53,729 nucleotides of DNA from Octopus sinensis. Lineage: Eukaryota. Below the pieces are notes generated by a model that saw only the letters and a list, made by a program, of their open reading frames with translations, searched no databases and was not told the origin of the DNA. The DNA lies in the NCBI RefSeq assembly GCF_006345805.1, contig NW_021835179.1, forward strand, positions 1 through 53,729, in the 5' to 3' direction. Position numbers and translations under genes: made by a program. Of the stretch, positions 18,271-41,660 are shown in pieces (positions within the stretch are counted from its first letter, which is position 1; each line of letters opens with the position of its first letter).

Positions 18271-19800
18271 CACCAAGAACCATGCTAATAGCTTAGGAAT
18301 GAAATTTAGGTTTCTCGGTTTTCTGGGAATCAGCTGGTTTGCACACTATGGCAACACCATTGTTATGTTTTCATTATTCAGTGTGACGTCCTTTTTTTTT
18401 ATTATTTCAGATTCTTCACTTTTTGGGTGAACCGTGCTAATAGCGTCTCTCATCTCTAACAACAATGGAACGTGGAAAGGGCCTTAACGATGAAGAAAAT
18501 CTGTCATCATCAAGGAAAGTGCTAAAGACACCTTTCTTCATGTCATTGCGAAGAAATTAAGTCGTCATGTGGACACGGTTAGACGATTCCTGAATGACCC
18601 TTCGCCAAGGAAGAAACGATCCGATTGTGGGACCTCCAAAACTGTAACAGCTAGGGATTTAAGGAATATTGGCCACAAGTTACTTGGGAAACCTGGACAA
18701 ACAAGCAAAGCCATTTTCATCGCCTCCGGACTTCCTAGAAGCTATTAGAAATCCTAGTAGCTCCGGAAAGCTACTAGAAATCGCATCTTCAGGACCATGG
18801 CTTACGTGTGAGAAACCCCTGAAACTGTCTCCTTTATAGCCCCGTCACAAGAGTTTGAAGCTTCAATGGGTCTGAAAGTACATGACATTAGACATGAGTT
18901 CTGTTCACTGACGAAACCAGGGCGACCCTTGACGGACACGGTGGTTGGGCAAATGGTTGGATCTATTTTGGAGATGGGCACCACCAACGTTTACTACGTC
19001 AACAACAGGGTGGAGGAGTCATGTCGTGGGCTGGTATCATTGGGGACAGACTTGCTAGCTCAGTCAGGGTGCCTGAAGAGGTTAAAGCCGCCTGCTGCAA
19101 TCTCCTGAAGGCGGTCTTGGATCCTTGGTTAGATGACATACCACTGCCACTTCTAAGGAATCTCGTATTCATGCATGACAACGCTCCCTCCAACACTCCT
19201 AAGACTACCCAAACATTACTAGGGTCTTACAAGGTGAATGGTTGATGGTGTGGTCGTCAGCATCTCCGGATCTCAACCCTATCGAAAATCTTTGGTTCAT
19301 CATTAAACAAGATGTTTATGCCGATGGACGCCAATTTATGTCGAAAGATGTTTTATGGGCGACCACTAAAGCTGCAGCAGAGGCAGTCCAACCTACTATT
19401 ATTAAGAAATTCACAAATTCCATACTAATAAGGATTTTGAAGTTTTCCGTCGAAATGTCGGTTATGTAGCTAAATAATTCATTATGTCAATAAATGTTAT
19501 AATATTATTATGGTTTTCTGTTAAATATATACTCAATGTATGCTTAGTATGTATCACTACCCTTCATTTTCTGAAAAAGAAATGTCTAGATGGGCTATTT
19601 TCATCCAAAATTATTTACATCGTTCACTCAAAAACTGAAGAATCTGAAATAAAAAAGAAAGGACTTTACACGGAATAATGAAAACATAACAATGGTGATG
19701 CCATCGTGCGCACACCAGCTGAGAGAGGTTTTATCAAAATTGATTTCCAGAAAACCGAGAAATCCTAATTTCATTCCTAAGCTATAGCGTGATTCTGGTG
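18271..19800 (+). mobile_element. Full-length but frameshifted Tc1-like transposon with ~160-180 bp TIRs
   Basis: TIRs at 18271-18432 and 19622-19800 (CACC..GGTG|TA). Motifs VLFTDETRATLDG, RQQGGGVMSWAGI, FMHDNAPS and SPDLNPIENLW. Confidence 0.92.
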
Positions 19801-21131: not shown

Positions 21132-21426
21132 ATGTATATGTATATATGTATATATATATATATGATATATATATATATGTATATATATATGTATATATGT
21201 ATGTATATATATAATATGTATATATGTATATATATATAATATATTTATAGAAATAATAAATATTAGGGAATAAATCCAAATTTACAGGGAAAAATCAGAT
21301 TTAGGATTAAATCGAGTTTTATAGTAAAATATTATAAATATTATTCGAGACAAAACCACTATTTTGCAAAACAAACAAGGAAAGACTTAATAATACATAA
21401 AATTTTAATAAATAGTAAAAAAAACG

Positions 21427-21470
21427 CCACTACAATCGTTTTCTTGTCTTGATCGACAATCTTCAGGTGG
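21427..21470 (-). ncRNA. Type I hammerhead ribozyme (left arm, one extra A after GAAA)
   Basis: Reverse complement of 21531-21573. Confidence 0.6.
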
Positions 21471-21530
21471 ACTTCCAATAATTCAGTGTCAAATTATGAA
21501 GTCATAATTTGACACTGAATTATTGGAAGT

Positions 21531-21573
21531 CCACCTGAAGATTGTCGATCAAGACAAGAAACGATTGTAGTGG
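21531..21573 (+). ncRNA. Type I hammerhead ribozyme
   Basis: ccac-CTGAAGA-ttgtc-gatcaa-gacaa-GAAA-cgattg-TA-gtgg. All three helices pair. Confidence 0.8.
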
Positions 21574-21814
21574 CGGTTTTTTGATATTTATTAAAATTTT
21601 ATGTATTAATTAAGTCTTTCCTTGTTTGTTTTGCAAAATAGTGGTTTTGTCTCGAATAATATTTTATAATATTTTATATATATAGTTATAATATATGTAT
21701 ATATTGTATATATGTTTATATATGTATGTATATATATATATGTACATATGTATATTTATATATTATATATATATATTATATATATATTTATATATATATG
21801 TATATATGTATATT

Positions 21815-31179: not shown

Positions 31180-32516
31180 TAAAATATGAAGTTCGAAAAT
31201 GCTGCTATATTATACAATTTTTGATTTTATATATACATTATAACATGTTTCAGTTCCTGAAATGAACCTTATCAAAAGAAGTTATATATAAAAAAAGATA
31301 GTTCATGCTATCAATCACAAGAAATTCATTTATAATACATAACGGTGTCAGACATCATAAAGTTCATAAATATATAGTTTGAAGTGAGTTCGTTCATGCT
31401 ATATGTTTAAAGTGCATGATGCAGCGGTTCACGGTGGTGACATGCATCCATTACAAAAAACAGATCAAAGCGGCGATATGTAGTCAATACAAAAAAACTG
31501 ATGTGTTCTGAAAGAAGAGAGAATTCATTTTTACCTTGAGCAACTGTGGTGTTCGCTGGATGATTCTGGCGAATCTTGTGAATTGTTCAGGTTTTATAAC
31601 ACTGGTCAGTCCAGCGTACGTGACGTCATCAACGTTTTGACCAATCGTTTCGTTAGGTGGCTTAGTCAAGCAGAACGGGACGTCATAAAAATTCTGACCA
31701 ATCACGACTTATAGCTGTATTAGATCTGCCCCTTGTCTGTACCTTTTAGGTGACTAGTCAAGCAGAAAAGGACGTCATCAATATTCTGACTAATCTCTGC
31801 CCCTTGTCTGTATCCTGTCCAGTCTAGCAGAATTAGACGTCATCAACGTGTTGACCAATCAGAATCGGGTCTGACCCTTAGCTGTATCGTATGTGGTCAG
31901 TCCATTAGGGTTAGATTTGTACGAAGAGATCTTTTATAAATTTTTTCCCCTTTTTTCCTAAAGCATATTTCCGTCAATGTGAGTGACTGTTTAAGGTAGC
32001 GGCTGTGGTGGAATTTTGCTTCTCCTTTTCGGAGGACCTATCTTTGTTTAATATTCCTGGCCCAAGGTGTTAAACTTGGTTTAAATTTTTTTATGAAATG
32101 CAGTTCTTTATTTTGGGTTGCGTGAAGGTTGCGTTGTCACTGAATTTATAGAGCGGGTTAGTTGTGAATTTCGGATTTACATTCCAGCACATCTATCTAT
32201 GTGTCCGCTGACCGGTATTTTCCGGTAATCAGGGTTTCTAATTTGTGATTATGCACCGCCATCCTGTTACGTAAGCTATTTTTGTATGGCCTATATACTG
32301 CCTATTGCAGCCTGCGCATGTTATGACGTAAATTAAGTTTTCTGATGCGCAGGTGAAGTTTGTTCTAATGGTGAACTGGTGGCCTTGTTCCAGTATAAAT
32401 TCTGATCCTTCTTTCAAGATGTCGCAGATTCCGCAGTTGGGCCTTCCACATTTTCTAACTGCTGGTTTTGTGGTTGATGTTGAGTGCAGTGTAGCTTGGG
32501 TTAAAATCCTTTTCAA
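31180..32516 (-). mobile_element. 5'-truncated Penelope-like element (Neptune-like): GIY-YIG endonuclease remnant plus 3' UTR
   Basis: CGRPNCGIC zinc linker and NLIYVITCAGCNRQYIGHT, with a frameshifted continuation to KELHFIKKFKPSL (~32065). A decayed HHR-like motif lies at about 31238-31280. Confidence 0.85.
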
Positions 32517-32526
32517 GGATATATAT

Positions 32527-32675
32527 ATACAAAATTTAGAGGCTTGACTACTAAAAGTGGACAGCCCGTATACTAGAAATAGACGTCAAAATCGCCATTT
32601 TCCACGGCGATTTTGGCGTCTATTTCTAGTATACAGGCTGTCTACTTTTAGTGGTCAATCCTATAAATTTTGTAT
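32527..32675. repeat. 70-bp-arm inverted repeat with 9-nt loop
   Basis: 32527-32596 versus 32606-32675, 6 mismatches. Confidence 0.9.
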
Positions 32676-32781
32676 GTAAAAAATTTTTAATCTTCAGATT
32701 TTTTAAGATATACTAGACCACTCGTTTTAATTGATTAATATCAATTTTTACCCTTAATTATATATATATATATATATATAT

Positions 32782-33567
32782 TGTTGTGTCTGGGGAGAGT
32801 TATTCTCTTCTAGTGCCTTATAATTTAACACATCTATCAGTAAAATATCCACTTACTTTCTTCGAAAAAGAAGAAATAAGCTATATCAAATCTCTGAGCG
32901 TGATGTTGCAACACGGAATCGTAACATATAATTGTCAGCCAACTGTGGCGTCCCATACGGGACAGTGCTTCTGGATAGTATCGATACCCCAGGACAGACA
33001 TACGACCCAGCTTTAACTGACCCTGTCTGATGTCCGTATTATTGTAACATAATTGTCAACCAAGCTTATTTCTCCTTTTTCCAGATCAGATGTCTTCCCG
33101 GGGCTATAAGCACCAGTAGCACTGTCCCGTATGGACCGCCATACTTGGTTGGCATTTATATGTTGCTATTCCGTGTTGCTACTGTTTAAATCGCGCTCAG
33201 AGATTTGATATAGCTTATTTCTTCTTCTTCGAGATCAGCGACGGTTCGTCGCTGGAAAAAGCATATAGTATTTCGTGAGAGGGGTGAGTTTTCATCATTA
33301 TCTGGCGATTAACACACGCTGAGGATGGGTAACAATCCAGAAACTCGAGTCCGTATGTATCCCGTAAGGGATGGGAGCGATGATCTCCCCTCGCTAATAC
33401 TAATCGGACACAGATTGTGTGTCATTAGCCAGCTGGAGGAGATGTCTTCCTGGGGCTATAAACGCCGGTAGCACTGTCTCGTATGGGACGCCGTACTTGG
33501 TTGGCAATTATATATTACGATTTCGTATTGCTACTGTTTACATCACGCTCAGAGATTTAATATAGCT
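32782..33567 (+). mobile_element. HHR-bearing element with direct (33088/33440) and inverted (32861-33001) repeats
   Basis: A ~130-145 bp block is repeated at ~352 bp spacing with an HHR between the copies. (TA)n flanks. Confidence 0.7.
33312..33358 (+). ncRNA. Type I hammerhead ribozyme with GUC cleavage site
   Basis: acacacg-CTGAGGA-tgggt-aaca-atcca-GAAA-ctcgag-TC-cgtatgt. Confidence 0.85.
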
Positions 33568-33572
33568 ACACG

Positions 33573-33629
<57 letters not shown>

Positions 33630-33723
33630 TGGTGTTGTGTGTGTGTGTGTGTGTGTATGTGTGTGTGGGTTAATACATACATATATATATATATGAATAC
33701 ATACATACATAATATATATGTAA

Positions 33724-41304: not shown

Positions 41305-41660
41305 CTAATGTTTACATCGATAAGCACGCTCTATAAACGTGTTTACAAGGGGATTCTTAGAAAAAAAAATATAAAGGAACTCACTATTACAGTGTTGGCA
41401 GAATTCTTTGCCTTCATCGTATGAGAATGAAGTGGAGAGAATCAACCAATCTAAATTAAATTGTTTATTATGATCTTTTAGATACCAAATTAATTTACTA
41501 AGCCCTGTACTGTTGCGCTTATTACTATCCCTAAATGTAGAATAATGATTAGAAATTATTTTAGATAACCGAGAAGAAGAACTACCTATATAAAAAAAGA
41601 CATCGGTACCGGAAGTAATTTTACACTGGTGTATAGAGTTTTTCATCTAAGAATTACTGC
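41305..41660 (-). pseudogene. Penelope-like element GIY-YIG endonuclease remnant (Naiad-like)
   Basis: YIGSS..NHYSTF..STGLSKLIWYLK..WLIL..Y..CQHCNSE fits the YIG..H..SF..T.LS..IW.LK..W.I..CxxC..E pattern. Confidence 0.75.

Follow-up and report, generated by a model that had tools for sequence, protein, structure and literature searches.

The stretch of DNA analysed here, referred to below as the window, comprises 53,729 nucleotides of the Octopus sinensis contig NW_021835179.1 and is animal-type DNA rich in simple repeats, with a GC content of 25-40% in 2-kb bins. Two (AT)n microsatellites, one on the left (32759-32781), which is the likely insertion target, and one on the right (33573-33627), enclose a set of related segments. 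The set opens with an end segment, or tail, of 80 bp (32782-32861, minus strand), supported by contig depth and contig continuations, which follows an inverted copy of a segment termed A (32862-33001, minus strand); the inverted copy ends at the equivalent of position 33232, where A joins the next segment in the direct orientation. Beyond its other end lies a weak extension (33003-33043, minus strand) resembling the end of segment B (33396-33436), with a score that 12 of 2,000 shuffles reach. Comparison of the repeats places at 33041-33089 a junction of two short copied pieces, 33041-33063 repeating 32918-32942 and 33063-33089 repeating 33212-33238, which from their sequence are likely to be template-switch scars. 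The plus strand then carries the first direct copy of A (33088-33232), segment B (33233-33439) and a second direct copy, A' (33440-33567), which stops 17 nt short of the end of A; both copies are delimited by repeat comparison. Segment B, seen in contigs and with a fold score of z = -2.3, is the hammerhead-bearing part of a monomer of about 352 bp and contains several short hairpins.

The partial tandem A-B-A' and the inverted head that precedes it were already noticed in the sequence-only reading, which placed a hammerhead between two direct repeats with an inverted copy before them, and both repeats were found again by measurement. The direct repeats (33088-33215 and 33440-33567) are 86.7% identical over 128 nt, with 13 transitions and 4 transversions, and their spacing of 352 agrees with the period of about 352 bp proposed earlier. 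Over aligned columns, the identity of the inverted copy (33001-32862) to the direct ones is 83.3% and 80.2%. An assembly artefact is rejected, as the same reading had argued, with copies that differ by 13-20%. Private changes number 15 in the inverted copy and 7 and 9 in the direct copies; one insertion event does not predict this extra divergence, and the inverted copy may stem from a sister subfamily or from a second event. In all, the locus covers about 1.36 periods and has a single hammerhead: the second direct copy breaks off at 33567 and does not reach the ribozyme part. The monomer of 352 bp has a GC content of 46.6% and is non-coding: its longest stop-free stretch is 77 codons and no ORF lies within 32782-33567. 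A tRNA-derived unit is rejected, ARAGORN finding 0 tRNA genes in it. No target-site duplication is readable within the (AT)n flanks.

The hammerhead itself occupies 33312-33358 on the plus strand and is of type I, with cleavage predicted after 33351. The canonical CUGAGGA/GAAA/GUC core that had been described from the letters was found both by reading and by script, with CUGAGGA at 33319-33325, GAAA at 33340-33343 and the GUC ending at 33351, and the order of its elements (CUGANGA, GAAA, UH) is that of type I. The script also recovered all three of the helices first claimed. Stem II (33326-33330 with 33335-33339) has 5 bp, one of them G.U; helix III (33343-33350) has 2 bp, its CUCGAG (33344-33349) closing over a palindromic UCGA tetraloop, and the UC on its 3' side (33350-33351) sets the position of the predicted cut; stem I, or Ia (33312-33318 with 33352-33358), forms 6 of 7 pairs, with a C.A mismatch at 33315/33355. 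The core is in this way surrounded by helices of 6/7, 5 and 2 pairs in the window copy, and stem I reaches 7/7 in the family majority described below. Helix I also has a 2-nt bulge and stem II a loop of 4 nt, between which a loop 1-loop 2 tertiary contact might form in the one full sequence compared. The window motif has neither the short helix I nor the long helix II nor the reduced helix III that define the minimal hammerhead of Penelope-like elements (PLEs). Its helix I of 7 bp and helix III of 2 bp instead place it in the canonical type linked to retrozymes; judged from its sequence, it belongs with the canonical invertebrate hammerheads and not with the minimal Penelope ones.

A strict descriptor of the motif gives 1 match in the window, 1 in total across 300 block-shuffled windows and 0 in 5,000 dinucleotide shuffles of 32782-33567, shuffle figures that are somewhat flattering as the descriptor was composed after the motif was known. 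Rfam gives 0 matches at the gathering score across the whole window, and the 30 matches that it gives up to E=10 within 31400-33700 are chance ones of hairpin or miRNA type, with no hammerhead family among them. Nor is the active fold the one of lowest energy predicted for the window copy: pair probabilities are about 0.1 for stem I and about 0.001 for helix III, and z = -0.14. The window copy has lost 5 nt and several helix I pairs, the 5-nt loss creating a hairpin (33359-33372) that competes with helix I. These models predict little or no ribozyme activity for the window copy, and since it has decayed relative to its family it would be a poor substrate for a cleavage test. Taken as a circle, the monomer reaches a better fold than its shuffles do (z = -2.58), a modest signal in which 2 of 200 shuffles do as well. 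Two helix III strands pair with each other at -10.7 kcal/mol, and helix III of the monomer costs energy; the minimum of the dimer co-fold is not the hammerhead dimer.

Words of the window stretch occur in sequencing runs of several organisms: among the 24 runs listed, the best holds 0.68 of them, three more hold 0.35-0.36 and 16 hold 0.04-0.18; none of the runs is listed as RNA. Four of the 24, with X19 as the one drawn from those 16, were used for the family comparison, by alignment to 32785-33568 at an identity of at least 80%, and all four consist of assembled contigs, which cannot show strand, ends, circles or expression level. Two are DNA runs, X1, which may be the window's own sample, with 2,643 aligned contigs, and X2, with 3,644; the other two, guessed to be RNA and possibly DNA, contributed 93 and 61. 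Most contigs are less than 95% alike (2,220 in X1 and 3,031 in X2), which makes this a diverged multi-copy family. None of the 61 contigs in the guessed-RNA run that shares the species label of X1 is at least 95% alike, a count that argues neither way.

Among the 40 of 119 difference rows listed, eight fall within 33296-33369, and six of the eight restore or improve pairs. The C.A of stem I is closed by A>G at 33355, in 11,209 of 11,736 depth in X1 and 6,668 of 7,017 in X2 (95% in both). C>T at 33306 (88% and 93%) together with C>A at 33362 (97% and 93%) turns a C.C opposition into U-A, and U>C at 33336 (78% and 83%) turns the G.U of stem II into G-C. The differences at 33298 and 33301 give letters that pair, as read by hand, with five letters that family contigs carry after 33369. 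The remaining two are one at 33334, in loop II, and U>C at 33326 (77% and 67%), which breaks the basal pair of stem II unless 33339 differs as well, a position absent from the rows listed; a mismatch at this basal pair is described for an axolotl motif (PMC7229834). In the same 40 of 119 rows no difference falls in the core or in 33344-33351. Copies lacking the core had been named beforehand as the observation that would count against the ribozyme reading, and over these rows the core is kept throughout.

With the family-majority letters, helix I extends over 33298-33369 on the plus strand. Beyond Ia lie a 2-nt bulge (33310-33311), helix Ib (33305-33309 with 33359-33363) and, across an internal loop, helix Ic, in which 33298-33302 pairs with 33369 and the 5 nt missing from the window copy; the family pairs of Ia, Ib and II were checked by script and those of Ic read by hand. 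On these letters the family helix I would comprise 7 + 5 + 5 pairs (about 17) interrupted by the bulge and the internal loop, and the window copy would have decayed from it. The majority letters pair better, so that the family looks like a better ribozyme than the window copy. At least 5 gap letters are present in 10 of the 10 pieces that cross 33369 among the 32 pieces listed (6,616 further). In the tabulated counts the 5-nt insertion after 33369 appears in only 3 + 3 contigs of X1, at less than 10% of depth, a low figure that probably comes from alignments breaking at 33369. Loose ends just before 33370 in 38 (X1) and 48 (X2) contigs keep the GUC and have CCGG where the window copy has UCGA, a two-letter change that preserves the palindrome; this consensus covers 30 letters, and 33344 lies outside it.

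These pairings bear on the possibility that the hammerhead match is a chance arrangement in an unrelated repeat. The silence of Rfam on the motif and an active fold that is not of minimum energy are what such a coincidence would have in its favour. Against them stand the 0 of 5,000 shuffles and a family majority that pairs better at the very stems that the model predicts, and chance is largely refuted.

The contigs also bear on how the repeat is organized and spread. Both junctions, A-B and B-A, are crossed by contigs in the family, and one contig of 650 nt, common to X1 and X2, has the order B-end, A, B, A, repeating about every 353 nt. As both unit junctions recur, the family fits a head-to-tail non-LTR retrozyme of about 352-357 nt. 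Two complete hammerheads in one contig are not seen among the 32 pieces listed (6,616 further), in short-read contigs, which break in such repeats. Summed contig depth, which is not copy number, is 2-5 x 10^5 over 32785-32838 and 33406-33459 (3-5 x 10^5 over the first of them) and about 10^4 over the hammerhead region in both DNA runs, a ratio of 30-50 times, which suggests that these two segments also belong to a much commoner relative. The first 50 bp of the tail would be common to that relative. Contigs running past 32832 with letters resembling 32833-32862 number 81 and 95, from which we infer that the tail is joined to segment A in other copies as well, the junction itself being absent from the pieces listed. 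Similarity of the tail to the helix I strands, as a copy or as a complement, is weak: in four comparisons, each against 2,000 shuffles, the score is equalled or passed by 317, 26, 42 and 106 of them, and two of the comparisons used windows picked after inspection.

A decayed window copy and a majority of contigs less than 95% alike are also what would be expected of a repeat, satellite-like or dispersed, that had multiplied by duplication of its DNA, through unequal crossover or fold-back, and in which the hammerhead would be a passive relic. Satellite-type amplification has been discussed for retrozymes of Xenopus, where 1 of 9 tested dimers cleaved (bioRxiv 10.64898/2026.07.22.740005). This explanation is nevertheless very unlikely here, as the two-sided changes between subfamilies that keep pairs or palindrome speak for selection on the structure of the RNA, at any rate while copies were being amplified, and an inverted head lying between (AT)n runs agrees with integration of PLE type.

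Remains of PLEs do occur close by. A broken, 5'-truncated endonuclease end runs on the minus strand from 32519 to about 32070 and is 55-65% identical to four proteins, which have weak C-terminal GIY-YIG matches in 4 of 4 cases and RVT_1 upstream in 2 of 4. The fragment bears a CX4CX2C linker, assigned in the literature to elements of Neptune/Nematis type (PMC8557442). DNA similarity of the unit to either of the two PLE fragments in the window is not detected, and the candidate membership of the Neptune-type fragment in the same element is rejected for now, no DNA being shared. A Neptune-type fragment without detectable DNA in common with the unit shows that PLEs inhabit the genome and does not identify the partner of this repeat.

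The surroundings of this fragment have features of their own. Frame-broken as it is, it extends with a long 3' region to about 31180 (minus strand), ending at an (AT)n run. Within that region four direct repeats of about 41 nt (31606-31860) each contain GACGTCA- and CCAAT-like words, which we assume may be promoter-like motifs. What may be a minimal hammerhead in decay can be made out by eye at about 31275-31240 (minus strand), its helix III a palindromic CAUG and its core mismatched at two places; a scan allowing one mismatch does not pick it up. Exactly at the truncation point of the PLE lies a near-perfect palindrome of 155 bp (32524-32678) with 73-nt arms, 90% alike, around a 9-nt spacer, a MITE-like or fold-back piece. 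Further away, at 41305-41646 (minus strand), a second and different GIY-YIG-like fragment resembles by eye a PLE endonuclease; it has no significant Pfam match and no match to the four Neptune-type proteins. A long inverted repeat in (AT)n at about 21300-21680 contains mirror hammerhead-like motifs at 21466 (minus) and 21535 (plus), with the core CUGAAGA/GAAA/UA, a 5-bp stem II and a stem I of 4-5 bp, unrelated in sequence to the motif at 33319; the region looks like head-to-head PLE ends with minimal hammerheads. Finally, a stop-free stretch at 18898-19245 (plus strand) resembles by eye what we take to be a Tc1/mariner transposase fragment.

The presence of PLE endonuclease fragments in the window, one of them 260 bp from the unit, gives some weight to an alternative in which the repeat is the terminal pseudo-LTR (pLTR) of an autonomous Penelope-like element, the locus consists of 5'-truncated ends, and the hammerhead serves the full-length element, with no independent short retrozyme. 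The layout is typical of truncated PLE insertions (PMC8557442), and the hammerheads in the pLTRs of PLEs are of type I, their helix III being in some cases small and palindromic (PMC4209133). Several observations speak the other way and make this alternative unlikely. Many family contigs cross the A-B junction at one fixed point, and loose ends do not cluster at 33233 in the 24 loose-end rows listed (742 further); joints left by random truncation at the 5' end would be ragged. The dimensions of helices I and III are not those of the minimal type of most animal PLEs, and the 3' end of the Neptune-type fragment next to the unit is a different one. The arrangement that marks an autonomous PLE, an ORF for reverse transcriptase (RT) and GIY-YIG between pLTRs, is not found at the unit, the neighbouring endonuclease fragment being on the opposite strand and without a sequence link.

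Taken together, the locus is best read as an aged copy of a many-copy, non-coding repeat of about 352 bp that contains a type I hammerhead in complete form and is likely to be a non-LTR retrozyme whose insertion was the work of Penelope-like enzymes, a reading to which we give a probability of about 0.72. The earlier suggestion of a partial-tandem retrozyme or mini-PLE fits well with a multi-copy repeat whose stop-free stretches span at most 77 codons, whose two junctions recur and whose layout is PLE-like. By analogy with described animal retrozymes, head-to-tail copies would be transcribed, and each hammerhead would cut after its GUC, probably with the help of two palindromic helix III strands that pair with each other. 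The resulting monomer of about 352-357 nt could then be closed into a circle by a host ligase, steps of multimer self-cleavage and monomer circularization for which the analogy is drawn from PMC7229834 and PMC4209133. A PLE reverse transcriptase with its GIY-YIG endonuclease might copy this circle into an (AT)n site for more than one full turn, and such copying would leave a partial tandem, an inverted truncated copy and short template-switch scars.

A much broader reading is distinctly speculative, its truth being rather improbable. The locus would lie at the edge of a very large undescribed retrozyme superfamily, whose subfamilies share the long interrupted helix I and swap UCGA and CCGG in step, and of which a sister subfamily would be tens of times more abundant. 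Every insertion would end in a fixed 80-bp segment resembling the strand just after the cleavage site and able to pair with the 5' arm of the ribozyme as a built-in switch, and the full Penelope insertion signature of inverted head, tail and (AT)n target would be kept. If true, it would tie animal retrozymes mechanistically to PLE enzymes and would point to plentiful circular RNA made by ribozymes.

Type I hammerhead retrozymes have already been described in many animals, corals, mussels and salamanders among them, and with such a wide distribution one more family is unsurprising. That PLE enzymes mobilize animal retrozymes is an open proposal, based on co-occurrence and on pLTR similarity (PMC7229834; bioRxiv 10.64898/2026.07.22.740005). 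A non-coding hammerhead unit surrounded by an inverted head, an end segment and a microsatellite target offers a direct test case for it, and the natural swap of the UCGA and CCGG palindromes provides a simple handle on dimeric cleavage. The literature found on hammerheads of octopus and other cephalopods contains no description of such a family, of which supplements and repeat libraries may hold one, and the family is likewise undescribed in the literature found on non-autonomous PLE hammerhead elements with inverted or microsatellite features, as well as in the available parts of PMC13282606 and PMC10886601; one of the two supplementary files of PMC4209133 has no match for the family terms. 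Pattern scans for relatives gave 0 metagenome loci and 0 genome contigs. Seventeen viral loci from these scans are chance matches, none with both stems, as is one viral locus in which only a 21-mer matched, inside an unrelated ORF-like stretch; a further scan gave 31 metagenome and 3 viral loci, again by chance, without hammerhead stems or similarity beyond the pattern.

Compared with known systems, the repeat is closest in several respects to the metazoan non-LTR retrozymes. Their described monomers measure 170-400 nt, with 350-390 bp in mussel and 330/350 bp in axolotl (PMC7229834), and the octopus unit resembles them in its non-coding monomer size and GC content below 50% (PMC7229834; bioRxiv 10.64898/2026.07.22.740005), in its type I hammerhead with a helix III of 2 bp and a tetraloop and its head-to-tail junctions (PMC7229834), and in being without LTR features in a genome where PLEs co-occur (PMC7229834; bioRxiv 10.64898/2026.07.22.740005). 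It departs from them in two ways. An active retrozyme is defined by two consecutive units with complete motifs (bioRxiv 10.64898/2026.07.22.740005), and the window locus falls outside this definition because it holds one hammerhead. The inverted head, the 80-bp end segment and the (AT)n flanks are, moreover, unmentioned in the available text of PMC7229834, in which the words 'inverted' and 'microsatellite' occur 0 times. With the hammerheads of PLE pLTRs it has in common the type I topology, the conserved core and, around helix III, palindromic positions suggestive of a dimeric mode of action (PMC4209133). The minimal PLE hammerhead, on the other hand, has a helix I of 4-5 bp, a helix II of 7-8 bp and little or no helix III (PMC4209133), whereas helix I of the octopus motif has 7 bp (about 17 in the family), helix II 4-5 bp and helix III 2 bp plus a tetraloop, and no ORF is attached. 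Naiad and Chlamys elements differ from it in being mostly without canonical hammerheads (PMC8557442). As for the manner of insertion, PLEs leave partial tandems, an adjacent inverted 5'-truncated copy and an extension of 30-40 bp at one end, and their bias for microsatellites hides target duplications (PMC8557442). The end segment of the octopus locus has about 80 bp instead of 30-40 bp, and homology of its 3' end to an autonomous family is not seen within the window. The locus resembles such insertions, among them those of MRC1 and other Chlamys elements that are putatively non-autonomous, in its partial tandem, its inverted truncated copy, its extension at one end and its microsatellites (PMC8557442).
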